This document shows positions 2,406 through 34,254 of a stretch of DNA of 44,706 bases, one piece after another (within the stretch, counting starts at the first letter, position 1; the number at the start of each line of letters is the position of its first letter). Source of the DNA: a phage; assembly GCA_021454005.1 (NCBI GenBank), contig GCA_021454005.1_3939.1. One strand, given 5' to 3'. A model generated the notes under the pieces. That model saw only the letters and a program-made list of their open reading frames with translations, was not told the DNA's origin and did not search any database. The position numbers and the translations under genes are program-made.

Positions 2406-2887
2406 TGGTTAAAAGGGTTATTCACCCCGCGAGAGCAAAATTAGTCGGGGCTATGAAGAACTTGCAAACGGCTAATGCTCAAGTTGGGTATTTTCAAGAA
2501 CAAGGTCAACATAGCTCTGGTTTTTCTTATCCTGCTTTAATGTATTTACAAGAAGTTATTGGGGTTCCTTCAGCTTCTGGTAAAGTATATCGTAGGTTGT
2601 TTGAAATTACTATGATGCTAAACAAACAGACCTTGTTAGAGCAGACTAAGAAGAATCTATATAAGCAACTTAGCAGTCTCAACACAGACCCTTCAAATAC
2701 CTTAGAAGCATTTGCAAAGAATGCTCAAAAGGCAATTAAAAGAGGTTTTGGTAATTCTGCTATCCTCCCTCCTAACGCACCTTCCACAGTCAAGAAAAAA
2801 GGCTTTAACGCACCTCTTGTTGAGACAGGTGACTTAAGAGATAACCTTGCTTATAAAATTTCTACTAAGAAGGGTATTAAAAAATGA
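2405..2887 (+). CDS. head-tail joining / neck protein (hypothetical)
   Basis: 160 aa ORF, start overlaps the upstream stop (ATGA); position only. Confidence 0.3.
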   Translation: MVKRVIHPARAKLVGAMKNLQTANAQVGYFQEQGQHSSGFSYPALMYLQEVIGVPSASGKVYRRLFEITMMLNKQTLLEQTKKNLYKQLSSLNTDPSNTLEAFAKNAQKAIKRGFGNSAILPPNAPSTVKKKGFNAPLVETGDLRDNLAYKISTKKGIKK

Positions 2888-3285
2888 GACTCTTAAACAG
2901 ACACAGCTTTGTAGTAAAGCGTAAAGTCTCTGAAGATGGTTATTATAATGCTGATGGTGATTGGGTAGCTTCACAAGATATTGTAGAGGTTAACTGTAAA
3001 GGTAATATTCAGCCATATATCAAAGGTTCTGTAAAGAATGGTACACAGATTGCTTTACCGGAAGGTATTAGGCTTACCGATACAAGAATCCTGTATACCA
3101 CATATAAACTTAGAACTTCAGATGATGTAGAGTGGAATGAGTCTGATATTGTTATGATTGATGGTCATGAGTATGAAGTATTTATGACTATGGATTGGTC
3201 ACAGCAATTAGCCCATACGTCCCATTATGAATATATCATTATTAGAAGGGATAAAATGAATGCAGTTAGAAACAGCAGAACTTGA
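2884..3285 (+). CDS. neck / tail completion protein (hypothetical)
   Basis: 133 aa ORF overlapping the previous stop; position only. Confidence 0.3.
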   Translation: MRLLNRHSFVVKRKVSEDGYYNADGDWVASQDIVEVNCKGNIQPYIKGSVKNGTQIALPEGIRLTDTRILYTTYKLRTSDDVEWNESDIVMIDGHEYEVFMTMDWSQQLAHTSHYEYIIIRRDKMNAVRNSRT

Positions 3286-3859: not shown

Positions 3860-5212
3860 ATGTGGAATCCAATTGTTAATGTAGATATTACATTGAACAC
3901 CGCAGGAACTACAAGAGAAGGTTTTGGTTTGCCACTATTCTTAGCTTCAACAGATAACTTTGAAGAAAGAGTCCGTGGTTATACTTCCTTAACTGAAGTT
4001 GCTGAAGATTTCGATGAAAACTCTGCTGCATATAAGGCTGCTAAACAACTTTGGAGTCAAACTCCTAAAGTAACTCAGCTTTATATTGGTAGACGTGCTA
4101 TGCAGTACACTGTATCAATTCCTAATGCTGTTACTGAAAGTACAGACTACTCAATTACTGTAGCTGCTGGCGGTGGAATTTCTCAACCATACCAGTACAC
4201 AGCAGTGGAATCAGACACTGCTGAGAAAGTTTTGCAACAGTTTAAAACACAGATTGAAGCTGACCCAACAATCAAAGATAAGGTTTCTGTGAACGTAACT
4301 GGTAGCAATGGCTCTGCCACAATGATTATTACCAAAGCTGGTGATAATGACTTTGTGAAAGTAACAACCACAGCACAGACTGTGTATATTGCAAGTACAA
4401 CTGCCGATACAGCATCAACTGCTCTGGCAGCTATCGAAGCTTACTCTACTGACTGGTATTTCATTGCAGCAGAAGACAGAACTCAACAGTTTGTCTTAGC
4501 AATGGCTTCTGAGATTCAGGCTCGCAAGAAAATCTTCTTTACAGCTAACTCCGATGTAACAGCCCTGCAAGGTACAGAATTAGCCAGTGCAAATGATGTT
4601 CCAGCACAGCTTGCTAAGAGTATGTACACTCGTACAGTTTGCTTGTGGCATCACGCAGCAGCAGAAGACTATCCAGAGATGGCATACATTGCTTATGGTG
4701 CTCCATATGATGCAGGTTCAATTGCTTGGGGTAATGCTCAGCTAACTGGTGTAGCAGCTTCTCTACAACCATCTAATCAGAGACCTCTGACAAGTATTCA
4801 GAAGTCTGCTTTAGATGTACGTCACTGTAACTTTATTGACCTTGATGGTGGTGTTCCAGTGGTTCGTAGAGGGATTACTTCTGGTGGGGAATGGATTGAT
4901 ATCGTCCGTGGCGTTGACTGGTTAGAATCAGACCTGAAAACTTCTCTGAGAGACTTGCTAATTAACCAGAAGGGTGGTAAGATTACTTATGATGATACTG
5001 GTATTACCCGTATTCGTCAAGTCATTGAAACCTCTCTGCAAAGAGCAGTCAACAGAAACTTCCTGTCATCTTACACAGTTAATGTTCCTAAAGCCTCTCA
5101 AGTTGCTTTAGCAGACAAGAAAGCACGTATCCTAAAAGACGTTACCTTCGCAGGTATCTTAGCAGGTGCTATCTTGGATGTTGACTTGAAAGGTACAGTG
5201 GCTTACGAATAA
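3860..5212 (+). CDS. tail sheath protein
   Basis: 450 aa ORF followed by tube-sized ORF, chaperone pair and tape measure, the P2/Mu order sheath - tube - chaperones - TMP. Confidence 0.55.
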   Translation: MWNPIVNVDITLNTAGTTREGFGLPLFLASTDNFEERVRGYTSLTEVAEDFDENSAAYKAAKQLWSQTPKVTQLYIGRRAMQYTVSIPNAVTESTDYSITVAAGGGISQPYQYTAVESDTAEKVLQQFKTQIEADPTIKDKVSVNVTGSNGSATMIITKAGDNDFVKVTTTAQTVYIASTTADTASTALAAIEAYSTDWYFIAAEDRTQQFVLAMASEIQARKKIFFTANSDVTALQGTELASANDVPAQLAKSMYTRTVCLWHHAAAEDYPEMAYIAYGAPYDAGSIAWGNAQLTGVAASLQPSNQRPLTSIQKSALDVRHCNFIDLDGGVPVVRRGITSGGEWIDIVRGVDWLESDLKTSLRDLLINQKGGKITYDDTGITRIRQVIETSLQRAVNRNFLSSYTVNVPKASQVALADKKARILKDVTFAGILAGAILDVDLKGTVAYE

Positions 5213-14409: not shown

Positions 14410-15597
14410 ATGGCAGTAGGTGAAATTCAAATTAGTGCCTTGCCTCAAGCAGCCTTACCAATTGACCTTAGTGATATCTTCCATCTTAAGCAGGGTATTG
14501 AGGATAAGAGATGTACTCTTGAGCAATTACTTGCTCCACACTCAAGCCTAAGAAATAACCCTCATGGTGTGACTAAAACACAAATTGGTTTAGATAATGT
14601 TATTAATTCTCTTCAGTTAGTTGCTGCAAATAACTTATCAGATATTGTTAATGTAGCTGAGGCAAGAGCAAATCTACAGATTATGTCTTCAGAAGAGGTT
14701 AATAACCTTGTTCAACAGCATATTCAGGACAAGAGCAACCCACACAATACAACTAAGGCACAGGTAGGATTGAGTAATGTTCAAAACTGGACAACATCTA
14801 ACCTTTATAATGAAGATGCAGATAAGTATGCTACAGCAAGAGCAGTAAATAACTTGTACAAGGCTGTTCAGGCTTCCTATCCAGTAGGTACTATCCATCT
14901 TTCCATGAACTCTGCAAACCCTTCTACATATTTAATTTGTGGGGGTACTTGGGAGTTAGTTTCAAAAGGTAGAGCATTGGTTGGTTATGACTCTGACACA
15001 AGACCAGCAGGTTCTGTATTTGGTGCTTCAACTGTTACTTTGTCAGTTAATAACATGCCTCAACATTCACACTCCGTGTCTCTTAGTGGTGGTGGTCACA
15101 CTCATAATGCAACTGTGTCAATTTCAGCTTTTGATTATGGAACTAAGACTACCAATTCTTTTGACTATGGAACAAAGACTACTAACACAACAGGTAACCA
15201 CAACCATGTTGGTAGTGGGTCAACAAGTACTGCTGGTGCTCACAACCACAGATTGACATATGAAGCAGGCGGTGGCCTATCGGAAAGACCTGCAATGGTT
15301 TGGTCTACAAGAAATGACCAATCGTGGTACTCAGCAGATGCTGTCTGTGAAGTCGCTGGTGCACATACCCACTCTTTCAGTGTTACCACCAACACAACTG
15401 GTAACCACAACCATACAGTAGGTATTGGTGCTCACAGCCACACAGTTGGTATTGGTTCGCATACACATAATGGTACTGTAACAGTTTCTTCTTCTGAACA
15501 TACGCATAGCGGGAACACTAATAGTGTTGGTGGAGGACAAGCTTTCAACATTGAGCAGCCATCCTTCGTACTGTATGTATGGCAGAGAACAGCTTAA
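14410..15597 (+). CDS. tail fiber protein (short), His-rich tip
   Basis: Two copies of the phage tail-fibre repeat (NPHGVTKTQIGLDNV, NPHNTTKAQVGLSNV); C-terminal FDYGTK repeats and HxH motifs (TGNHNH, AHSHTVGIGSHTH); C-terminal end shared with next gene. Confidence 0.65.
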   Translation: MAVGEIQISALPQAALPIDLSDIFHLKQGIEDKRCTLEQLLAPHSSLRNNPHGVTKTQIGLDNVINSLQLVAANNLSDIVNVAEARANLQIMSSEEVNNLVQQHIQDKSNPHNTTKAQVGLSNVQNWTTSNLYNEDADKYATARAVNNLYKAVQASYPVGTIHLSMNSANPSTYLICGGTWELVSKGRALVGYDSDTRPAGSVFGASTVTLSVNNMPQHSHSVSLSGGGHTHNATVSISAFDYGTKTTNSFDYGTKTTNTTGNHNHVGSGSTSTAGAHNHRLTYEAGGGLSERPAMVWSTRNDQSWYSADAVCEVAGAHTHSFSVTTNTTGNHNHTVGIGAHSHTVGIGSHTHNGTVTVSSSEHTHSGNTNSVGGGQAFNIEQPSFVLYVWQRTA

Positions 15598-19607: not shown

Positions 19608-20153
19608 TCAAAAGTGTCCTTTTACTTGTGGAACATAAATTTCAAAGGTTGCTTTACCATCATCCGATGGCCTTGACTGTACCTTTGCAAATACACGGCT
19701 ATCATACAGCTTCTCAAAGAAGTTTTCAAAAGGTAAATGCACAGTGGCCTCTTCAGTAACTTTATGGAAGACTGTATGGAACACCACACCAGCATACGGT
19801 AAAGCATTGACAAGGACACCTGCACCACCAATTACAAAGACATCTTCATCAATAGAGCTATCAAGATACTTCAAAAATGCTCCAAATGACTCTTTACTGG
19901 CTTTAGCATACATTACATCATCTTTGCCAAAGTCTATGCCTAAGTATGGTACAGAATTTGTTAAGATTAGGTTTGCACGTTCTGGTAGAGGTTTACTACC
20001 CAGAGTCTTAAAAGTCTCATTACCCATCACTACTAAGTTATTTTTAGTGAGTCTCTTAAACTCTTGCATGTCCTGTTTATGTCGAGGCCACGGCATACCA
20101 GTTGGAGTACCAAACTCACCATTTTCACCACTTGCAAAGATTAATTTAATCAT
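19608..20153 (-). CDS. frd: dihydrofolate reductase
   Basis: N-terminus MIKLIFASGENGEFGTPTGMPW with LVVMGNETFKTLG..PLPER matches the DHFR fold signature; adjacent to thyA. Confidence 0.8.
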   Translation of the reverse strand: MIKLIFASGENGEFGTPTGMPWPRHKQDMQEFKRLTKNNLVVMGNETFKTLGSKPLPERANLILTNSVPYLGIDFGKDDVMYAKASKESFGAFLKYLDSSIDEDVFVIGGAGVLVNALPYAGVVFHTVFHKVTEEATVHLPFENFFEKLYDSRVFAKVQSRPSDDGKATFEIYVPQVKGHF

Positions 20154-20410
20154 TTTGTAAATCCTTTCTTAATGAACCAGTTGATAACACTCTTCACAAC
20201 TTTACTATGATGGTAGATAAAATGTGGAGAGGGTTGGTATGAACCATAAGCCCAGAAAGCGATAATTTCATTACACCCTGTGCATCGGGTACTTTCTTCA
20301 GCAATATGACCGTTGACTATTTCACTTACCTCACCTTGTAAGTCTGTACACCCGCAATGTGGACAACGGATAGGTGTTCCATCAGACTCATAGCAGTGTT
20401 CAATTTTCAT
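20150..20410 (-). CDS. small zinc-ribbon protein (hypothetical)
   Basis: 86 aa with CPHCGC...CTGC cysteine pairs; start overlaps DHFR stop. Confidence 0.35.
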   Translation of the reverse strand: MKIEHCYESDGTPIRCPHCGCTDLQGEVSEIVNGHIAEESTRCTGCNEIIAFWAYGSYQPSPHFIYHHSKVVKSVINWFIKKGFTK

Positions 20411-20926
20411 CTATTTAACCTCAAAAACTGGTTCAAGAACCAATATAAAGTCTACACAGTCATCTTCTTCATCCAGAATACCATCAAAGTTCTTAGGTAC
20501 AAAGTCGAAGAGGCTCATAGAATATCGGTCAGAAGTAACCCTGATAGTGTTCCCTATATTCTCTACAGTTAATATTGTACGGCTTTCTGTTACCTCACTT
20601 AGAAGATTACTCACAAAGTCATCTAAGAAGTGTTTCATCAGTGACTTGAAGCCTTTAGGGTAATCTGTACCAGAGTATGTTTCAATCTGAGGAACAAGCT
20701 TAACATTTATACTAGTCTTTGTTAAGAACGTTTTAGAGAACATGCTATCAGGTAGCTTACAAACAGTCTTTCCAGTACCTTCATGTTCAATCTCAACAAA
20801 ACCAGCTTCGTCTCCACATGTAACTATTTTAAAAGATGCTTCATTCTCATACTGTGAAGCCATAAACTTTTTAAGCATTTCTTTAAGGAAATCTGCATGA
20901 GCATCTTGTAAGTAGATATCAATCAT
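20411..20926 (-). CDS. hypothetical protein
   Basis: 171 aa ORF in - strand block; no motif recognised. Confidence 0.35.
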   Translation of the reverse strand: MIDIYLQDAHADFLKEMLKKFMASQYENEASFKIVTCGDEAGFVEIEHEGTGKTVCKLPDSMFSKTFLTKTSINVKLVPQIETYSGTDYPKGFKSLMKHFLDDFVSNLLSEVTESRTILTVENIGNTIRVTSDRYSMSLFDFVPKNFDGILDEEDDCVDFILVLEPVFEVK

Positions 20927-20939
20927 AGTTAATCACCTA

Positions 20940-21299
20940 TTATGGGAACAAGCACTTAATGTCATCGTTTTTGAAAACAAAACTTGTGTAGTTGTGACCA
21001 TCAACATCCAACCAAACAGCCTGAACATCCACACCATCAAGATTGTGGTAAAGTTCTTTGATGAAGTGGTCTTTCACAATCTGGCTGCTAGTTGTTTCCA
21101 GCTTAATGTTCGAGATTGCTGAACCTACAGCCATATAGCCCATGACCCGTTTCTTCTCAGTATGCTTAATCTTACCATCTTTGTAAGCCATAATGAGATT
21201 GGAAAGAATTTTTACACCATAATACTTTTCAAGGTGAGTAGGTACACCATAAAAGCCTAATGCGAAGTTTTCAGAGTGGATAATGTTTTCACGTTTCAT
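20940..21299 (-). CDS. hypothetical protein
   Basis: 119 aa ORF; no motif recognised. Confidence 0.35.
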   Translation of the reverse strand: MKRENIIHSENFALGFYGVPTHLEKYYGVKILSNLIMAYKDGKIKHTEKKRVMGYMAVGSAISNIKLETTSSQIVKDHFIKELYHNLDGVDVQAVWLDVDGHNYTSFVFKNDDIKCLFP

Positions 21300-21300
21300 A

Positions 21301-21600
21301 TTAATCTGCCAACCTTAAATTGAAATTAACACCAAATTTTTCACATACTTCCAACATATACTCAAGGGAGACGTTACCAGTGAGATGGATTATGTTGGAT
21401 ACACGAGCCTGAGAGATACCACAAATTTTAGCAACTTGCTCTTGAGAAAGACCTCTGGATTTAATCTCTCTCTTAAAACGATGTGCAACGAAATCTCTCA
21501 TTTCATCTACATCCATTGGACAAATATAACTCTCCATTTCAGCCTCTCTATCAGCCTCCCAATCATCTTGTGGGGCATAAGGGTCAAAAGCCTCATTCAT
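21301..21600 (-). CDS. putative helix-turn-helix DNA-binding protein
   Basis: HTH-like segment LSQEQVAKICGISQARVSNIIH preceded by acidic N-terminus; start taken at ATG 21600, overlapping upstream stop (ATGAATGA). Confidence 0.4.
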   Translation of the reverse strand: MNEAFDPYAPQDDWEADREAEMESYICPMDVDEMRDFVAHRFKREIKSRGLSQEQVAKICGISQARVSNIIHLTGNVSLEYMLEVCEKFGVNFNLRLAD

Positions 21601-21805
21601 CTTTCTTCTTCCGTTTGCGTGAAGTGTCAATCAATGAATCTATGTTTGTAGCCCTAACCTTTTCACGTTCATCGTTAAGATAATCATCAAGAGCCTTTTC
21701 AATCTGTGAATCATCTTGACAGATAACTGTAAAGACTGTAAAGCCATCTGTATCGTCAATTATCTTACCATAACCGCTTCTGGGATGTAACTTTTTAAGA
21801 GCCAT
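21593..21805 (-). CDS. hypothetical small protein
   Basis: 70 aa ORF with basic C-terminus (RKRKKKDE), coupled to downstream HTH gene. Confidence 0.3.
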   Translation of the reverse strand: MALKKLHPRSGYGKIIDDTDGFTVFTVICQDDSQIEKALDDYLNDEREKVRATNIDSLIDTSRKRKKKDE

Positions 21806-21806
21806 A

Positions 21807-22190
21807 TCAAATACCTGTGCAGCTTCTGTTTTCTAAGAAATACTCAACACCATACATAGCTTTTTGCATCAAATCTTCTTTAAACTGGATACGATGGTTG
21901 AGCATAGCCTGTACATCAATATCATCACGGTGTTTCTCTTTAATATTTGCAGATTGCAGGAAATACTCTGCAAGAACACGATACTGGTAGTCAGTTACCT
22001 TATCAGTCATCTCTGTCAAAGATTCTTCAGAGATTGGTTTAAGTAGTTCACCATTAGCCAGAGCAACACCTTTAACAATCTGGCAAGTGTCTTCTGGAAC
22101 ACCTGATAAGTCCACATTTGGAAGTTCTGTTGCATTGACTGGTAAGTTCATTGCCATAACCATTGCAGTAGCTAATAAAATCTTTTTCAT
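21807..22190 (-). CDS. secreted/periplasmic protein with signal peptide (hypothetical)
   Basis: N-terminus MKKILLATAMVMAMNLPVNA-TE looks like a Sec signal peptide with AxA-like site; RBS GAGGT; own promoter upstream. Confidence 0.45.
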   Translation of the reverse strand: MKKILLATAMVMAMNLPVNATELPNVDLSGVPEDTCQIVKGVALANGELLKPISEESLTEMTDKVTDYQYRVLAEYFLQSANIKEKHRDDIDVQAMLNHRIQFKEDLMQKAMYGVEYFLENRSCTGI

Positions 22191-22234
22191 AATGACCTCA
22201 AAGTTATATTAAATTTTGTATTACATTGAGTATA

Positions 22235-22263
22235 AAAATAAGCTATAACACCTGACTTGTCAA
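22235..22263 (-). promoter_or_regulatory. sigma70-like promoter for signal-peptide gene
   Basis: On - strand: TTGACA (22258-22263), 17 nt spacer, TATTTT (22235-22240); -35 extends as TTGACAAG..GGTG. Confidence 0.35.
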
Positions 22264-22282
22264 CAGACTTTATAGCTTATTT

Positions 22283-22656
22283 GGCAGATTTTTTATAAGG
22301 CTACTGCCATCCTTCCATACCCTACCTTACCACACCTAACCATACCTAACCAAACTACACCATACAATACCTTATTAAAAGACCCTCTTAAAGACCTTTT
22401 AAAAAGGTAAGTCTCATTTTAATGTAGCTGAGACTAACTACCCACACCTTACCTCACCTGACCTGACCTGACCATACCTAGCATTACCGTGCCACACCTC
22501 ACTTAAAAACCCTCTTAGAAGACTCTTAAGTGATGTAATCGGATTTTAATGTAGCTCCGATTAACTACCCGCACTTTACCAAACCTCACCCTACCCTACC
22601 AGACCTTACCTAACCGCGCCGTACCTCATTAAAAGACCCTCTTAAAGACCTTTTAA
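22283..22656. repeat. intergenic modular repeat array A (3 units)
   Basis: Hairpins at 22283-22308, 22410-22435, 22536-22563; G-depleted tracts at 22309-22374, 22436-22499, 22564-22628; second hairpin family at 22375-22402, 22500-22532, 22629-22656. Confidence 0.7.
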
Positions 22657-22678
22657 AAAGGAGCCTCCGAAGAGGCTA
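22651..22678 (-). terminator. rho-independent terminator (UUCG tetraloop) after 146-aa gene
   Basis: On - strand: AGCCTC-TTCG-GAGGCT followed by CC TTTTT; 10 nt after stop of gene 22689..23129. Confidence 0.5.
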
Positions 22679-22688
22679 CCTAGTCAAC

Positions 22689-23129
22689 TTAGAAAGGTTT
22701 TCTACGTTGCTTGTTAATGTTAGCTTTCATAGCAGCTAAATGGTTTTGCTGTTCAATTAGTCGTGAACGTTCTTGATGGCTAAGTACCATAGTGTTCACA
22801 TTCTCAATCGCTTGAGTGGCTTGCTTTAAAGCACGACCAATCTTACCAGACATTTTACGTTTTGCAATAGTTGCTTGATGCTTAGGTTCAACCACACGAT
22901 AACCAACACCCATTGAAGCAACCAGATAAATCTTCTCTTCTTTAAGAAGCTTCTCAATAAACTTCTCAAGTCGATTTAAGCGTGTAAGCGCATAAGCCTT
23001 CATTTCATCTTCGTACTTAACAATGTCACCTTGATAAGTTGGCTTCACAATACCTAAGAAGGTGTCCATCTCAGAATGTGATACAGTGTCACCGTAACTA
23101 AACTTTGCTGCTAATGCTTTTGTATTCAT
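22689..23129 (-). CDS. hypothetical protein (cassette gene 2)
   Basis: 146 aa ORF, basic C-terminus (KANINKQRRKPF); no motif recognised; between repeat arrays. Confidence 0.4.
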   Translation of the reverse strand: MNTKALAAKFSYGDTVSHSEMDTFLGIVKPTYQGDIVKYEDEMKAYALTRLNRLEKFIEKLLKEEKIYLVASMGVGYRVVEPKHQATIAKRKMSGKIGRALKQATQAIENVNTMVLSHQERSRLIEQQNHLAAMKANINKQRRKPF

Positions 23130-23131
23130 AA

Positions 23132-23737
<606 letters not shown>

Positions 23738-23760
23738 TTAGTTGATTGTTAAGTTGTTTG

Positions 23761-24098
23761 TAAAGAACCCTCAATAGAAGACTCTTTAGAAACTTGGTAG
23801 ATTTTTAACGTGGCTACTACCATCCACCCACACTTTGCCATACCTCACCGCGCCTTACCCGACCGGGCTGCACCTTGCCTTGCCAAACATCACTTAAAAA
23901 CCCTATGAGATACCCTATCGAGTATAATTTAAAGGCTCTTAAGTGATGTAAGTCTCATTTTAATGTAGCTGAGACTAACTACCCATACCCTACTTTACCT
24001 TGCCGTACCGTACTTTACCCGACCACACCGGACAATACTTAACCCTACCTCACCCGACCGGACATCACTTAAAAACCCTCTTAGAAGACTCTTAAGTG
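23761..24098. repeat. intergenic modular repeat array B (2-3 units)
   Basis: Second-family hairpins at 23761-23788, 23891-23945, 24066-24098; first-family hairpins at 23796-23821, 23951-23976; G-depleted tracts at 23822-23890, 23977-24065. 24066-24098 equals 22500-22532; 23951-23976 equals 22410-22435. Confidence 0.7.
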
Positions 24099-24131
24099 AT
24101 GCTGGTGAGTACCCGTTGGTCTATGCTGCTC

Positions 24132-24159
24132 AGTATACTCACCAAATTTTCTATGTCAA
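24132..24159 (-). promoter_or_regulatory. sigma70-like promoter firing into repeat array B
   Basis: On - strand: TTGACA (24154-24159), 16 nt spacer, TATACT (24132-24137), just downstream of ligase stop; overlaps inverted repeat GGTGAGTA/TACTCACC (24104-24141). Confidence 0.35.
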
Positions 24160-24165
24160 CAACTT

Positions 24166-25266
24166 TTATTCATAATCTCGTATAACGAGACCAACAGGGA
24201 ACTGTAAAGAACCCTTACGAGTCATCTTCTGGAACTGAACCGTTAAAGGTTTCCCGATAAACTCTTCAGGATGCTCAGCAAGATACTGTTTCTTCTCATG
24301 AGTAGTCTTCCATGAGACATCTACAAAGACGTTAGGAAGAGTCTCTACAACGAACTTACCATGACCACGTTTATCAGTCTTTACACCAGTAACTTTAAAC
24401 TCTTCAGTGTGCATCTTCTTGTGCTTAATCAAGAAGTATGAACGGTGACCACACTCATAGAAAGATTCTTCAGAGATTGAACGGTACATTGCACCTTCAA
24501 ACTTAGCTTCAACCCACTTATCATGAGCTTCATCAAACTCTTCCCAAGAATTTACACGGATAGTCTGTACAGGAACAACTCTACAGGTATCCCCAAGCTC
24601 AACAATAGGTGAGTTATCAATAACTTCACGACGCTCAGGCCAAGATTTTGAATTGTCACAGATATCATACCAGTAGAATTTAAGAAGGTGACGGTCTGGA
24701 TTGTCAGCATTCTTAATCATAGATACAATATCTTCTAAGTCCCAACCATGAGCATAAATCTCTCCGTCAAAGTCTTCAACTTGCGGATGTAATTTAAGCA
24801 ACAAAAGCAAATCTGGGATTAGTTCTGTTGGAACGTTGTAAACAGTATTCTCACGAGAATAAGCTGTGAAACTGACTGAATCAGCATCTCTTGAGATTCT
24901 ACAACGTACACCATCAAGTTTTGGTTGAGCATCAGCAGGGAACTTCAGATACTTTGCATGACTAACCTTTGCAGCATCATGAGCAAGCTGTACACCTACC
25001 TTCTCAGTATTCTGTGCAGACTCTTTTGTGTAAGCATAACCTTTACGGTCAACTTGCTTTTTATACTTAGCAGCAACTTCAAAGAGAGCTTGCTGTTCAG
25101 CGTTACGCTCATTCTTTTTACCGATGTTCTTAGGCTCTGCTGTATACTCTTCAAACATCATCTTGCCATTCTCTTTACCATAGGTTGTAATAACTTTGTC
25201 ACCTACAGCAACACATGACCAGACGTTGAAGGAACCATCTTTATTTTGTTTGTACAGAATTGTCAT
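24166..25266 (-). CDS. ATP-dependent DNA ligase
   Basis: Adenylation motif KLDGVRC (KxDG); size about 366 aa; start set at ATG 25266 with RBS GAGGT. Confidence 0.8.
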   Translation of the reverse strand: MTILYKQNKDGSFNVWSCVAVGDKVITTYGKENGKMMFEEYTAEPKNIGKKNERNAEQQALFEVAAKYKKQVDRKGYAYTKESAQNTEKVGVQLAHDAAKVSHAKYLKFPADAQPKLDGVRCRISRDADSVSFTAYSRENTVYNVPTELIPDLLLLLKLHPQVEDFDGEIYAHGWDLEDIVSMIKNADNPDRHLLKFYWYDICDNSKSWPERREVIDNSPIVELGDTCRVVPVQTIRVNSWEEFDEAHDKWVEAKFEGAMYRSISEESFYECGHRSYFLIKHKKMHTEEFKVTGVKTDKRGHGKFVVETLPNVFVDVSWKTTHEKKQYLAEHPEEFIGKPLTVQFQKMTRKGSLQFPVGLVIRDYE

Positions 25267-25459
25267 TTTTAACCTCTGAGTGATACCAAGTATTGCAAGC
25301 ATTACATGCGTAAAGCTCTAAGTCATTTTTATCTGGTTTGTGGAAACAGTTTGACCCACAACGACACCGGAATAGCTTACCATCAACACGAAGAATGAAT
25401 GTTTCAAGCTCACCATCTTCTGTAAGAACTGCGTTCTTAAATTTATCTTCTACAGTCAT
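25241..25459 (-). CDS. small zinc-finger protein (hypothetical)
   Basis: 72 aa with CRC...CNAC cysteine pairs; 3' end overlaps ligase start. Confidence 0.3.
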   Translation of the reverse strand: MTVEDKFKNAVLTEDGELETFILRVDGKLFRCRCGSNCFHKPDKNDLELYACNACNTWYHSEVKNDNSVQTK

Positions 25460-25662
25460 TTTCTCTTACCACCAATCTCTACGTCGATAACTTGAACATC
25501 GCCAGCAACATCAAACTTATGAATGATGCTTTCCACAGTGTAAGTCCAACCCTCAATGCGAACCAACTCACCTTCTCGTGGGACGATTGGATTACGTTGA
25601 GCTACGGTTGTAGTGGAGTGAACAACATCATAACAATAGATGTAGTTTACTAAGACTTCCAT
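25456..25662 (-). CDS. hypothetical small protein
   Basis: Start set at ATG 25662 with RBS GAGGT 7 nt upstream; the longer ORF-track version overlaps the lipoprotein gene. Confidence 0.3.
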   Translation of the reverse strand: MEVLVNYIYCYDVVHSTTTVAQRNPIVPREGELVRIEGWTYTVESIIHKFDVAGDVQVIDVEIGGKRK

Positions 25663-25672
25663 CGTGAAAACC

Positions 25673-25942
25673 TCACTCAATAACCGTAGTGTGTGATTGA
25701 CCATTTTTGCCATAGCTATAAGATGTTGTTGTTTGGGAGTTTGGACATCTGACAACAACAATATCTCTGCTTATAGCATCACCATGTAACTTGTATACTC
25801 TGCAATCTTGCATCTCTGGTGGGAGACTGTAAGAAGCATTTTTATCTTCATAAGAAGGGTTGCAGCCAGATAGAAAAACAACACCAAGCGCAATTACTGC
25901 TTTCCACATAATACTTCCCCAGAGACTGTACATTTTCTTCAT
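25673..25942 (-). CDS. putative lipoprotein
   Basis: N-terminal hydrophobic segment ending in lipobox-like FLSGC; 89 aa. Confidence 0.45.
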   Translation of the reverse strand: MKKMYSLWGSIMWKAVIALGVVFLSGCNPSYEDKNASYSLPPEMQDCRVYKLHGDAISRDIVVVRCPNSQTTTSYSYGKNGQSHTTVIE

Positions 25943-26172
25943 AGCAACTCCAGAATATCAATACGTTCACCTTTGAGTACTCCAGTACGGTCTTTTGCAA
26001 TCTTACCGTCAACGATAAGGATGTGTGTAGACCTTAAAGTGTCGCTGTTAAAGGTTTTTACGAACTTGCTAGGCATCACTACAATACACATCTCCTGAAT
26101 CAACTCTGGAGTATAGCAATTGTCGTGAAGTTGCTGAATAACGTCTGCAAGTGTCATTTTTGATGTCTCCAA
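25939..26172 (-). CDS. small protein, paralog of 26360..26569
   Basis: C-terminus DGKIAKDRTGVLKGERIDILELL matches GGKIAKDKTGYLKGERVDIENLL in the other copy. Confidence 0.4.
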   Translation of the reverse strand: METSKMTLADVIQQLHDNCYTPELIQEMCIVVMPSKFVKTFNSDTLRSTHILIVDGKIAKDRTGVLKGERIDILELL

Positions 26173-26363
26173 TATTCAATATCTACAAGTTCTTGTGCAA
26201 TGCTTTTAAGGTTACTTTTAAGGAAAACTTTCTCACCACCAGACAGGGAAGTGTTATCAATGAGTCTATTCATTCTCTCAAACAACTTCTGCTTACGGTT
26301 CTTGATAGTTTCCTTTGAAGCACCTTTCATCATCGCTGCATGGGTTCTTCCACGGTGACTCAT
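26154..26363 (-). CDS. small basic protein (hypothetical)
   Basis: 69 aa Lys/Arg-rich ORF between the two paralogs. Confidence 0.3.
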   Translation of the reverse strand: MSHRGRTHAAMMKGASKETIKNRKQKLFERMNRLIDNTSLSGGEKVFLKSNLKSIAQELVDIEYWRHQK

Positions 26364-26569
26364 AGCAAATTCTCGATGTCTACACGTTCACCTTTTAAGT
26401 ACCCTGTCTTATCTTTTGCGATTTTCCCTCCAGCAATAAAGATATCTGCTATACGCAGAGCTTCAGGGTTTACTCTATAACCACTGCAAATAACAATAAG
26501 CATGTCTTCAATCTCTTTTTGAGAATAACCTGCACATTGCAACTGAACTTCAATCTCTGAAAGCGTCAT
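26360..26569 (-). CDS. small protein, paralog of 25939..26172
   Basis: 69 aa; shared C-terminal motif; RBS AGGAGG; conserved TTGACAAGGTG box upstream. Confidence 0.4.
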   Translation of the reverse strand: MTLSEIEVQLQCAGYSQKEIEDMLIVICSGYRVNPEALRIADIFIAGGKIAKDKTGYLKGERVDIENLL

Positions 26570-26630
26570 GTGACCTCCTATACAAGATACAGTATAAGGT
26601 ACTCTTCCATGAGCACCTTGTCAATACTAA

Positions 26631-29330
26631 TTAGTGAACCTCAAGCCAGCTTTTACCAACCTTACCAGTACCTGTAACAAGTGTTTCTTTCTTAAGACCT
26701 AAGTTCTTAGAAGCTTGTCCATAATACCAGTCAGTAACCGCTTTCACCTCTGCCGTCATGCTTTCTGGACATTCCCAACTCGTCTCATCGTGATATGCGC
26801 AGAGTAAACGAGCACCAATAGCTGGTTTGCGACCATTCAACTTCATCAAGCCTTCGTCAATCATACGACGACAAGCAAGGTTAATCGCCTCATTTTGAAT
26901 CTGAGCCTCTGAACCCATCAAAAGATAGTTCAATAATTTGTGTGGAGATTTACACCACAACCAAGCTCCAGCAACCTTTACAAAACCACCTTTAGAGATT
27001 GCAGCAGTCTTACCAAATACCTCTTCAAGTGCCTTTTTAGTTGCTTTGTAGTCAGCTTCCAAGTCATCTAGCAGCTTTTTAATTTTAGGCAAACGAATAA
27101 AGTAAGTCTGTTTAGTCAGCGCACCTTCCTGAGTAGTTGCAGCTTTAATCGTCTTAGCAAACTTCTCATCACCTGCACCGAACAGCAGTGCATAGATACC
27201 ATTCTTAGCTTTCTTACGACCCTTGCTAATCTCATGAAGAAGATTCTCATCCTGAGTAGCTCGACAAGTCAAGATGTCCTGCTCATCGTTCAAGTTAAAG
27301 TAAATACTGTTCAGTGTATGTGCATCAGTCCCTGAATAGACAACGTACAGGTCATTCTCAGAGTCATAGCGAAGGTACTTATCAATCTCTGGGTTAAGGT
27401 ACTCATCAAAGTGTTTACAGTAATAGCGTCCATCTTCTTGACGAATGAACTCAATTTCTTCTTTACCTTGCGTTACCGCTTTGGTGAAGTCTTTATCACC
27501 CATAAAGTTACAAAGAAGAACTAGCTGGGCTGAGTTCATGTCTACAGAGACAACGTTAGTACCTTCCTCACAAATCCACACTGCCCTCATTGGTTCCCCA
27601 TAGACAGCAGCACCAGACGGTACGTTTACAATACCATACTGTGTCATACGTCCAGTTGAAGTACCAAACACCATTGCACCAGCACTAAGGCGACCATCAG
27701 GACGAATCTGGTTCAACCAACCTTTTTCATCATCCTTTGAGTTCTCAATAGTTCTGCGTCGGTGCATCAAAGTGTAGTATTTAGCAATCTTCTGTCCAAG
27801 CTCACCTTCAATCGTATCGTAAGATGATTCAGTAAGTTTTGGTGAAGTACGGATTAAGCAAGGCTCAAGCAAATCTGTGTACTTCTTCACAGACCAGTTA
27901 TGCTCAATGTACTGGACGCCTTCGTGTTCAACATAACTCAAACCACACCGCTCAACCATTTCCTGCCACTTAGGATGCTTTGTAATCATCTTTTTATTGT
28001 CTTTGAAACGACAAACTTTGACAGGGCGACCATCAGAGTCTTTCTTGTAGTTCCAGTCATCTGGAATCCAACCAACTGATTTCAAGTAGTCTTTAACAAC
28101 TGCTACCTGAGTCATACGAGAAACTTCAAACTCAATTGGTGTATATGGTGCATCAATCAAACCTGTGTAGCGACTTGACTCAAGTTCAAAGTGGTTAACA
28201 ACGTGGCTGTTATAGTACTTCACAGTTTTGACTGTTTTTACTGGCTTCCAGTCTTTGCATTTCTTGCCAATCTTTGCGTTCAACTCATTGCAAATTGCAC
28301 GAGCATCCTTCATTGCTACAAAGCCTTCCTTGTACTCTTCACCAGTTACAGTGTTGGTTGGTGTATAGCAATTCCTTTTTTCAATGTTAAAAATCTTTGT
28401 AGTTGGCTTACCAAATGGTTTGATTTCGTATGTCTGCATCTCGCCATTACGTACCTGCTGACGATACTTTGTCTTAGGGTACTTGGTAATTCTTTTCAGT
28501 CCATCTGCATGACCAAATGTTTCAACATACTCATTCCAAGCTTTTGCAAACTCTTCTCCAGTGACTTTACCTTTGGTCTTAATAGTTGGAGGTAGATGTG
28601 GTTCAACCTCTGAAGCAAGCTCATTAGTCAACTTGTCAAGTTCCTTTACATGGAACTCCATAAGCTCTTTATCAGCTTTCCAACCATTGATAGCTTGTTG
28701 ACTCATCCAGAAAGATGTTTCTTTAGCTCGCATGTAGGTTTCATAAGTGTCTATGCCACACTTCTTAAGCTTGAGATACTCATTATCAAGTGCCCGTTTA
28801 GTTTTGGCGTTAATACGGATATCTTCTACAACACGAGTGAAGATTTCTGCATTCCACACACCCCAATGTTCAATCTCTGGTTTACGAACACCGACACGAG
28901 CACCCCATGCAGCCAAACCATGAGCACCTTTATAACCCTTTGGAGTTGGTCTATCCATCCACTGAACACGAGACTGGATAAGAGAATCCTGAAAGAAATT
29001 ACTCCACGGTTTACACTTTGGATTATCAAAGTTCCATAAATCGGGTGCAATGTGATTGAAAACCCACCAGTCATAACCAAGACCATTATGAATGCAAAGA
29101 CGTTTTGCCTTTAACGCAAATTCAATACCTTCACGTAAGCCACCCTTAATGTACTTGGTATACTTGTGACCGAGGATAGGCTCATCTGTAAAGACCCATA
29201 CAGGTGGCTCTTCATCGTCAGATTTATAGTCTGCGAAAGCCATTACGTGCACTTTAGTGAACTCAAGGAGTAAACCATCAGTTTCTGTATCACCAACTAA
29301 ATGTAAGTTTTTAAAATCTACGTTTTCCAT
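26631..29330 (-). CDS. DNA polymerase, family A (T7-like)
   Basis: Exo motif GDTETDGL; Pol A motif B RKKAKNGIYALLFGAG; motif C YHDE; start set at ATG 29330 with RBS GAGGGAG. Confidence 0.85.
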   Translation of the reverse strand: MENVDFKNLHLVGDTETDGLLLEFTKVHVMAFADYKSDDEEPPVWVFTDEPILGHKYTKYIKGGLREGIEFALKAKRLCIHNGLGYDWWVFNHIAPDLWNFDNPKCKPWSNFFQDSLIQSRVQWMDRPTPKGYKGAHGLAAWGARVGVRKPEIEHWGVWNAEIFTRVVEDIRINAKTKRALDNEYLKLKKCGIDTYETYMRAKETSFWMSQQAINGWKADKELMEFHVKELDKLTNELASEVEPHLPPTIKTKGKVTGEEFAKAWNEYVETFGHADGLKRITKYPKTKYRQQVRNGEMQTYEIKPFGKPTTKIFNIEKRNCYTPTNTVTGEEYKEGFVAMKDARAICNELNAKIGKKCKDWKPVKTVKTVKYYNSHVVNHFELESSRYTGLIDAPYTPIEFEVSRMTQVAVVKDYLKSVGWIPDDWNYKKDSDGRPVKVCRFKDNKKMITKHPKWQEMVERCGLSYVEHEGVQYIEHNWSVKKYTDLLEPCLIRTSPKLTESSYDTIEGELGQKIAKYYTLMHRRRTIENSKDDEKGWLNQIRPDGRLSAGAMVFGTSTGRMTQYGIVNVPSGAAVYGEPMRAVWICEEGTNVVSVDMNSAQLVLLCNFMGDKDFTKAVTQGKEEIEFIRQEDGRYYCKHFDEYLNPEIDKYLRYDSENDLYVVYSGTDAHTLNSIYFNLNDEQDILTCRATQDENLLHEISKGRKKAKNGIYALLFGAGDEKFAKTIKAATTQEGALTKQTYFIRLPKIKKLLDDLEADYKATKKALEEVFGKTAAISKGGFVKVAGAWLWCKSPHKLLNYLLMGSEAQIQNEAINLACRRMIDEGLMKLNGRKPAIGARLLCAYHDETSWECPESMTAEVKAVTDWYYGQASKNLGLKKETLVTGTGKVGKSWLEVH

Positions 29331-33886: not shown

Positions 33887-33915
33887 TTGACAAAGATTGA
33901 TAGGTTCTATAGAAT
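33887..33915 (+). promoter_or_regulatory. sigma70-like promoter TTGACA-17-TAGAAT
   Basis: TTGACA 33887-33892, 17 nt spacer, TAGAAT 33910-33915. Confidence 0.45.
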
Positions 33916-34225: not shown

Positions 34226-34254
34226 TTGACAATAGAGTATCAACAAATTAGAAT
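34226..34254 (+). promoter_or_regulatory. sigma70-like promoter TTGACA-17-TAGAAT
   Basis: TTGACA 34226-34231, 17 nt spacer, TAGAAT 34249-34254; same architecture as 33887. Confidence 0.45.

Follow-up and report, generated by a model that had tools for sequence, protein, structure and literature searches.

A probable native sigma-70 promoter at the 5' edge of a type II VIPR cassette in a Felix O1-like phage

The phage contig GCA_021454005.1_3939.1 (NCBI GenBank assembly GCA_021454005.1), a stretch of 44,706 nucleotides referred to below as the window, belongs to a Felix O1-like myovirus (Ounavirinae). On its - strand, the short interval that follows a ligase gene (positions 24099 to 24165) contains a promoter-like site, here called P_vipr, which is directed towards an array of GGT-rich pentamers (array B), two protein-coding genes (vipr and vap) and a second pentamer array (array A). 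The locus is a member of an already known system, the type II Viral Interference Programmable Repeat (VIPR) of the SUSP1 clade, and the site is probably the native sigma-70 promoter of the VIPR cassette, from which a guide RNA precursor would be made and then processed. The 3.6 kb around the site match 260 phage records, are 96% identical to Felixounavirus LF110P4 and, among phage records, are mostly 90-95% identical. From the promoter to the accessory gene, the - strand carries the following features:

24132-24159, - strand: probable sigma-70-type promoter P_vipr (11/12 consensus matches, conserved 28-mer; expected start at about 24124-24127)
24104-24143, - strand: inverted repeat GGTGAGTA (24143-24136) / TACTCACC (24111-24104), with 8-bp arms and a 24-nt loop
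24063-24101, - strand: first spacer hairpin CATCACTTAAGAGTCTTCT-AAG-AGGGTTTTTAAGTGATG, a 19-bp stem with G.U pairs (-20 to -22 kcal/mol, z -3.1)
23952-24062, - strand: vrRNA-B1, 16 YNNGG repeats (24062-23983) and tail (23982-23952), with presumed mature ends
23888-23948, - strand: long spacer-hairpin variant between vrRNA-B1 and vrRNA-B2 (-29.2 kcal/mol, z -7.9)
23796-23887, - strand: vrRNA-B2, 12 repeats (23887-23828) and a terminal-type tail GTGG..GGTAG..CCAC..CTACC (23827-23796), from the repeat parse and tail covariation
23756-23793, - strand: terminal spacer hairpin that closes array B (-13.6 kcal/mol, z -3.4; conserved in all loci)
23132-23719, - strand: vipr, encoding a 195-aa RAMP-like effector (190/195 residues identical to PDB 36pp_D)
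22689-23129, - strand: vap (VIPR accessory protein, vap1 type), 146 aa (144/146 residues identical to SUSP1 vap1; phrog_5926)

VIPR, an RNA-guided DNA-silencing system of phages, was first described in 2026, in two preprints (bioRxiv 10.64898/2026.04.26.720920 and 10.64898/2026.04.26.720927). According to them, the system consists of: (i) Vipr, a minimal RAMP protein of about 20 kDa with an RRM core, a G-loop and a thumb; (ii) an accessory protein encoded by vap; and (iii) vrRNAs of about 100 nt, in which 9-16 YNNGG repeats are followed by a 3' tail of about 40 nt with a hairpin and a pseudoknot. In these sources, one Vipr protomer is assigned to each GGY, and the variable dinucleotides (NN) pair with double-stranded DNA skipping every third base, thereby repressing transcription. 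Phage SUSP1 is reported there to have one vrRNA upstream and three downstream of vipr-vap, all of them detected by small RNA (sRNA) sequencing of infected cells, with most natural targets in an E. coli satellite phage; the formation of ribonucleoproteins, the skip rule and the silencing were shown, and discrete vrRNAs of about 100 nt were found bound to Vipr. The SUSP1 clade comprises Vipr proteins with >90% identity to that of SUSP1, and VIPR is proposed to be ancestral to the RAMP effectors of CRISPR. As far as the available text goes, this work used inducible vectors and did not address the native transcription and maturation of the guides.

The assignment of the window to this system is based on both proteins and on the arrays. 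A profile of the 200-aa protein encoded between the arrays matched PDB 36pp_D, 'SUSP1 Vipr protein' (E 9e-80), and the direct alignment is gapless, with 97% identity (E 1.5e-127). The five substitutions correspond to residues 18, 119, 159, 190 and 191, and the GGY-binding residues known from the cryo-EM structure (H17, R138, D177, W178 and R179) are all intact. The predicted fold (pLDDT 95.7) has Csm3/Cas7 of type III and VII CRISPR as its top Foldseek matches. Regarding the start of vipr, the open reading frame (ORF) lister placed it at a GTG (23734), while database proteins and the PDB chain begin at the ATG at 23719. The vap gene lies directly downstream of vipr, the position of its counterpart in SUSP1. 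A Pfam search of vipr and vap gave no match. In unrelated metagenomic phages, the gene pair of six distant Vipr relatives (37-40% identity) is likewise surrounded by pentamer tracts of GGT or GGC; the tracts, therefore, travel with vipr.

The promoter-like site is formed by a -35 hexamer TTGACA (24159-24154), a 16-nt spacer and a -10 hexamer TATACT (24137-24132), with 11 of 12 positions matching the sigma-70 consensus. A previous reading of the letters alone (the sequence-only reading) had proposed a sigma70-like promoter with these elements within 10 nt of the ligase stop. Its coordinates are confirmed, as is its orientation directly 5' of array B, and the measured distance is 6 nt: the TAA stop (24168-24166) of the ligase ORF (24166-25302, - strand; an ATP-dependent ligase according to PHROG and Pfam) lies 6 nt ahead of the -35. 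P_vipr is the top-scoring site in a consensus scan of 20000-28000 (8 kb) and one of only four intergenic sites of at least 10/12 in the window. For the 446-nt intergenic region concerned, the probability of a sense-strand site of at least 11/12 is about 0.007. Window-wide, such sites are not rare, with 3 seen versus 1.4 expected. Thus, as is usual for sigma-70 promoters, near-consensus hexamers are separated by a spacer of 16-18 nt, in non-coding DNA, and oriented to the downstream genes; hexamers and spacing are also kept among relatives, where the adjacent leader is conserved equally.

Inside arrays A and B, the consensus scan found no further promoter-like site of at least 9/12. Two candidates for internal promoters were discarded: (i) TTAAAA-17-TTTAAT in the A-type spacer, which does not have the essential A at position 2 of the -10; and (ii) TTTACA-18-TAAAGT (23764-23735), whose start would fall within the ribosome-binding site of vipr. 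The other two 11/12 sites of the window (33887-33915 and 34226-34254, + strand), both TTGACA-17-TAGAAT and 340 nt apart, may be promoters of the rightward gene block.

Conservation was assessed in 20 loci, i.e., the window and L001-L019, among which L017 is SUSP1; phage vB_SflM_004 (L035) was included as the most divergent relative. Of the 19 other related loci, 17 (SUSP1 included) have the same 28-nt promoter without any change, and the two exceptions are L014, with one change in the spacer, and L018, where the -35 is TTGACC. In vB_SflM_004 the -35 reads CTGACT, and the spacing, the -10 and the arms of the inverted repeat are unchanged. In 20/20 loci, similarity starts 6-7 nt 5' of the -35, be it after the 3' end of the ligase gene or after unrelated DNA. 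The position of the promoter does not depend on the ligase gene, as about 150-185 nt of other sequence lie between the two in SUSP1 and several relatives (in SUSP1 and L006, the ligase gene ends 150-185 nt further upstream of the promoter). Since similarity begins just 5' of the -35 whatever precedes it, the promoter constitutes the 5' edge of the VIPR cassette. SUSP1 has the identical 28-mer, the same leader, one spacer hairpin and vrRNA1, with the promoter 70 nt 5' of vrRNA1. In a wider set of 231 phage records, the 71-nt promoter-leader is present as one copy in each, at 95% identity or more in 225 of them, and is almost always unannotated.

Beyond the close relatives, an orphan vrRNA present in satellite elements of E. 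coli (see below) is preceded, at 45 nt, by a TTGACA-17-TAAGAT promoter of its own, and its tail is directly followed by a terminator; the distant VIPR locus L025 has TTGACT-16-TATTAT 5' of its first tract.

Several points, in turn, weigh against P_vipr as the native promoter. First, the whole leader is conserved, so that conservation does not single out the hexamers, and the -35 is no longer TTGACA in two relatives, one of which has CTGACT and the other TTGACC. Second, the promoter spacer is 16 nt long, the optimum being 17. Third, no terminator separates the ligase gene from the site, and read-through from upstream promoters could thus provide part or all of the RNA. Fourth, no E. coli-type promoter was found upstream in the distant VIPR loci L020-L024 and in that of Rhodococcus (L026); as their hosts are unknown or not enterobacterial, this search is uninformative. 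Fifth, the literature contains no mapped transcription start for any Felix O1-like phage, the available text of the preprints does not mention a native promoter, and the sRNA libraries described therein were CIP/PNK-treated, which makes primary and processed 5' ends indistinguishable. Finally, the processing at the spacer hairpins is pure inference.

These points lead to an alternative in which the hexamers have been kept only as part of the leader, or cassette boundary, and the guides are transcribed from promoters of the replication genes located upstream (polymerase to ligase). The absence of a terminator after the ligase stop, the conservation of the entire 71-nt leader, the lack of window-wide enrichment of sites of at least 11/12 and the degenerate -35 of vB_SflM_004 all agree with it. 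Nevertheless, a mere passenger of an upstream operon is not expected to mark the point where conservation begins whatever precedes it, to have an equivalent in the orphan vrRNA of the satellites, which has no upstream operon, or to keep -10 and spacing even in the most divergent relative. Transcription exclusively from upstream promoters is, hence, considered unlikely, and a native sigma-70 promoter is the preferred explanation.

Distant VIPR loci differ in their organisation. L021 (3545-3660) has GGC-dominated pentamers. L020 (4100-5000) shows units of about 100 nt with a conserved GC-rich hairpin between short tracts and no match to the Rfam hammerhead families. In L023 (3600-4060), a run of tracts of about 450 nt lies between vipr and vap. 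In the Rhodococcus globerulus contig (L026, 3719-5106), a Vipr homologue with 42% identity is encoded in an actinobacterial chromosome; genes of 92 aa and 176 aa flank it, with hardly any intergenic space on either side.

The sequence-only reading also described the -10 as embedded in an inverted repeat. The repeat does exist, but its 5' arm covers only the first two bases of the -10, while the 3' arm is situated at about +15 to +22. Among shuffled sequences, 1.8% contain an inverted repeat of such kind. The arms of the repeat show no variation in 20/20 loci and in vB_SflM_004, and five positions of the loop are variable. As RNA, the repeat would fold with -14.1 kcal/mol (z -2.5). The 5' arm, however, lies upstream of the expected start and, therefore, the repeat would not fold in RNA made from P_vipr, folding being possible only in read-through RNA. 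It is possibly an operator, or else an RNA hairpin that forms in read-through transcripts only.

If it were an operator, a phage regulator would bind the inverted repeat and occlude the -10, so that guides and effector would be expressed in a timed or autoregulated manner. The regulator might be Vap1, for which the preprint predicts DNA binding. The invariance of the arms against a variable loop, the 5' arm that abuts or overlaps the -10 and the low frequency in shuffles speak for such a role. By contrast, a search of the window for a second copy of the half-sites, as would be expected for a regulon, found none, near other promoters or elsewhere; for a dimeric operator, the loop of 24 nt is long; the conservation of arm 1 may simply reflect its position next to the -10; the binding protein is just a candidate; and, in read-through RNA, the repeat could equally be a hairpin. 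On balance, the operator is rather improbable.

Downstream of the promoter, about 405 nt separate the expected start from the ATG at 23719. The sequence-only reading had regarded this distance as about 400 nt of array B preceding the ribosome-binding site of the next gene. The length is correct, but array B is not an mRNA leader: it corresponds to two guide-RNA genes, each bounded by a conserved RNA hairpin, which form part of one system with the effector gene vipr downstream of them. In both arrays, units of about 127 nt are composed of (i) a long hairpin; (ii) a GGT tract in 5-nt phase; and (iii) a short hairpin with a conserved loop. Arrays A and B, read on the - strand, are the sole places of the window with GGT tracts phased at 5 nt. 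Each of the five tracts can be parsed into 11-16 YNNGG units and a 3' tail, and they flank vipr in intergenic DNA, on the sense strand, as vrRNAs of VIPR do. The dinucleotides NN differ between otherwise near-identical phages, while the flanks are constant. Altogether, 63 unique guides of 8-19 units each were extracted from the 20 loci.

The tails are under selection as RNA structures. In vrRNA-B1, the tail comprises a hairpin GTCTCA/TGAGAC and a pseudoknot GTAG/CTAC. When 33 distinct tails (20 phage loci, six satellites) are compared, hairpin and pseudoknot are 91% paired (slid controls, 28-40%), with double compensatory changes at 9/11 pairs, a value reached by 0/500 shuffles. The pseudoknot helix is 100% paired, with 3/4 pairs covarying, and 6/7 pairs of the hairpin show double changes. 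At gathering thresholds, the window matched no Rfam family; neither hammerhead nor other Rfam families turned up in the distant VIPR loci, and host REP-type naRNA4 beside the satellite accounted for the only hits.

Each tract is preceded by a hairpin of 17-20 bp with a tri- or tetraloop, and a further one closes array B, which thus has n+1 hairpins for n guides. In the window, these spacer hairpins occupy 24063-24101, 23888-23948, 23756-23793, 22624-22661, 22497-22535 and 22370-22408; the ribosome-binding site of vipr (GGAG, 23732-23729) comes after the terminal one of array B. At least three stem types with a similar loop can be recognised. All of the 50 short variants fold alike (50/50), and 6/15 pairs have double compensatory changes. 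Three positions are predominantly U.G, which on the other strand would give A.C mismatches. As these G.U pairs fit only an RNA of the - strand, the spacer hairpins are selected as RNA in the direction of the promoter, which means that a longer RNA running this way includes them. The variant at 23888-23948 has an 18-bp outer stem and an inner stem-loop derived from an insertion of about 22 nt. This long variant is also present in the downstream arrays of L002 and L016; the position of a spacer type within the arrays is, therefore, not fixed. Upstream of vipr, SUSP1 has 1 vrRNA, most loci have 2 and L006 has 3, Vipr being 96-100% identical (L002-L019, about 2450-3000 and 4050-4560), and the downstream intergenic length ranges from 249 to 516 nt among L002-L019. 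Guide sets differ almost completely among loci, and only a few guides recur in related form (window B1, L011, L006).

Given that a mature vrRNA is about 100 nt long (tract plus tail), the spacer hairpins must be removed and are likely processing sites. The available text of the preprints mentions neither spacer hairpins nor inverted repeat nor processing. A scheme can then be outlined, in which the host RNA polymerase would begin transcription of the - strand at about 24124-24127 and produce a precursor with, in this order, a leader of about 25 nt, the 19-bp spacer hairpin, vrRNA-B1, a second hairpin, vrRNA-B2, the closing hairpin, vipr and vap. The vrRNAs of about 100 nt would be cut or trimmed from this precursor, with the spacer hairpins as likely cleavage sites, and the remainder would be protected by a Vipr filament on the repeats and by the 3' pseudoknot. 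Each Vipr protomer would hold one GGY per repeat and present the NN, which would read double-stranded DNA with a one-base skip and thus silence transcription, while array A would be fed by read-through of the terminator that follows vap. We infer that the promoter fires, that it does so from this start position, that the precursor is processed and that transcription reads through into array A.

A more specific version of this scheme likens guide biogenesis to a minimal CRISPR leader-array: a promoter gated by the inverted repeat operator (possibly through Vap1) would yield one precursor, whose 17-20-bp, G.U-rich hairpins would be cleaved by host RNase III or another double-strand-specific enzyme. 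This version is a tentative possibility that we do not favour.

Array A lies beyond the vap gene and comprises the following features:

22652-22677, - strand: terminator-like hairpin AGCCTC-TTCG-GAGGCT with CCTTTTT after vap (-13.6 kcal/mol, z -3.3; same in SUSP1)
22283-22661, - strand: array A, with a spacer (22661-22624), vrRNA-A1 (22623-22538), vrRNA-A2 (22496-22411), vrRNA-A3 (22369-22283) and spacers between them, from the repeat parse and tail covariation
22235-22282, - strand: AU-rich 13-bp hairpin with a T-run (22282-22236), the terminator-like end of array A (-15.8 kcal/mol, z -3.1)

The post-vap terminator is formed by a stem (22677-22662) and a T-run that also serves as 5' arm in the spacer hairpin with which array A begins. 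At the other end, a promoter-like TTGACA-17-TATTTT (22263-22235; 10/12) for the next gene (21807-22190) lies within the hairpin that ends array A. The terminator after vap and this site had both been pointed out in the sequence-only reading as the reason why the two arrays differ in transcriptional context, and this difference holds. Since array A has no internal promoter-like site, read-through of the post-vap terminator from P_vipr would be the simplest source of its transcripts. Concerning the end of array A, the TTGACA of the 22263-22235 site is located in the loop of the 13-bp hairpin, which is then followed by TTTTT, and thus terminator and promoter overlap. The gene 21807-22190 encodes 127 aa with a signal-peptide-like start, MKKILLATAMVMAMNLPVNA.

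The guides also tell what the system is directed against. A vrRNA-like tail was detected in 53/5426 complete E. coli genomes, and it was by this route that the satellite was found: an island of 10-12 kb with a serine recombinase, baseplate, tape measure and HNH genes, as well as Dam in one case. Insertion sites differ among satellites (wrbA/ymdF, yecD/yecN). Each of the six (L029, at 14903-15094, and L030-L034, near 12000) contains one orphan vrRNA and no vipr gene. The orphan comes with a sigma-70-like promoter of its own, a pseudoknot tail of the Felix type and an intrinsic terminator; presumably, it borrows the Vipr of a helper phage. Some satellite guides match other satellites at 81-86%.

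The 63 unique guides were scored against the six satellites with a cut-off of at least 80% NN match. Under a 1-nt skip, 39 guides reached the cut-off, compared with 1 without skip, 4 with a 2-nt skip and 2 with a 3-nt skip; among shuffled guides with a 1-nt skip, 1 did. The 1-nt skip rule of the preprints is thereby reproduced independently. Four of the five window guides score at least 86% against the E. coli satellites under the 1-nt skip: (i) guide B1 matches at 30/32 NN (L032, 10269-10223), inside a 184-aa satellite gene, with the NN on codon positions 1-2; (ii) guide A3, at 20/22 NN, 30 nt upstream of the 184-aa satellite gene; (iii) guide A1, at 21/22 NN, 57 nt upstream of a 234-aa gene; and (iv) guide A2, at 19/22 NN, inside a 107-aa gene. 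The best match of guide B2 in the six satellites is 18/24 NN, i.e., no convincing target, and no match of at least 80% was found for it in the six satellites, in the window or, with its exact pattern, in IMG/VR. Exact NN-x scans of IMG/VR with guides A1, A2 and B2 returned 0 matches. Within the window, self-targeting was not found above background under any skip rule, the scan with skip 3 recovering the vrRNA genes themselves (control), and the satellite guides matched the window at background only. Judged by these matches, the guides of the window are aimed at a chromosomal satellite element of E. coli.

Two other interpretations of the arrays can be weighed in the light of these data. One of them takes array B as a structured 5' leader that regulates the translation or stability of the downstream gene in cis. 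Array B certainly sits between the promoter and the ribosome-binding site of vipr, and the processing of the precursor could incidentally alter the stability of the vipr mRNA. But the same units are also found behind the genes (array A) and, singly, in satellites devoid of vipr, the variable dinucleotides match foreign DNA by the skip rule, the number of units goes from 1 to 3 among near-identical phages and, according to the preprint, the RNAs bound to Vipr in SUSP1 are discrete. A regulatory leader in cis is, therefore, very improbable. The other interpretation places the function at the DNA level: the G-rich pentamers of the non-template strand, located downstream of a promoter, would form R-loops or G-quadruplexes in a replication origin or a primase-loading zone. 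A strong G>C skew of the sense strand, the adjacent replication genes and the upstream promoter would suit it. However, the G.U hairpins and the covarying pseudoknot reveal selection at the RNA level, the tracts accompany vipr in unrelated phages, and the structure of the Vipr-vrRNA complex has been solved, all of which reduces this option to a practically negligible one. Further ideas on the GGTNN tracts (a TRAP-like ring binder, R-loop origin or primase sites, two-tier G-quadruplexes, Shine-Dalgarno-like standby sites and Rho loading on the opposite strand) were dropped after the match to 36pp and the RNA covariation. The arrays are, in short, guide-RNA genes, and P_vipr is the site from which they are probably transcribed.

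Felix O1-like phages are in wide use for the typing and therapy of Salmonella and E. coli. Their 'repeat regions' should be annotated as vrRNA genes, and from the guide set of a phage it can be predicted which satellite elements it is able to silence. New here are the probable native promoter at the cassette edge, the covarying spacer hairpins, the invariant inverted repeat and the guide-to-target assignments. For those who know the VIPR preprints these additions are unsurprising, yet they are directly testable, and the first three provide handles on native expression and guide biogenesis.

Compared with the VIPR of the SUSP1 clade, the window shares (i) the proteins (Vipr 97% and Vap1 99% identical), the gene order and the presence of vrRNAs on both sides; (ii) the YNNGG repeats, both tail types with a pseudoknot, the promoter 28-mer, the vap terminator and the array-end signals; and (iii) guides that target the same kind of E. 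coli satellite. On the other hand, it has two upstream vrRNAs instead of the one of SUSP1, a different guide repertoire, a vrRNA-B1 whose 16 repeats are at the top of the published range, a long variant of the B1-B2 spacer and a ligase gene that directly abuts the promoter.

Among the promoters of Felix O1, P45 (TTGACA-17-TATAGT) and P102 (TTGACC-17-TATACT) have hexamers of the same types as P_vipr (Whichard et al., 2010; PMC3185647), and Felix O1-like phages, which lack an RNA polymerase of their own, rely on that of the host. P_vipr differs from these early promoters in that it is absent from the five listed there and in that it would drive guide RNAs first and proteins second.

As in class 1 CRISPR-Cas, a RAMP-fold protein polymerises on a guide RNA, a promoter at the end of the array would give rise to a precursor that is cut to unit guides, and a structured element flanks the variable parts. 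In contrast to class 1 CRISPR-Cas, VIPR lacks cas1/cas2, identical direct repeats, a contiguous spacer and Cas6; its guide information is dispersed as NN between GGY anchors; and it is encoded by a phage and aimed at a satellite. Accordingly, the arrays of the window do not behave as a CRISPR array: the similarity between units is 61-75%, and what varies within them is again a repeat of pentamers. The search for cas-like genes in the window yielded none besides the RAMP-like vipr. Finally, TRAP, which recognises (G/U)AG N2-3 x 11 in the Bacillus trp leader, resembles Vipr in the binding of one subunit per trinucleotide, the 5-nt spacing and an RNA of about 55-60 nt, but Vipr builds an open helical filament instead of a ring, its spacer dinucleotides are informative, and its output is DNA targeting, not attenuation.

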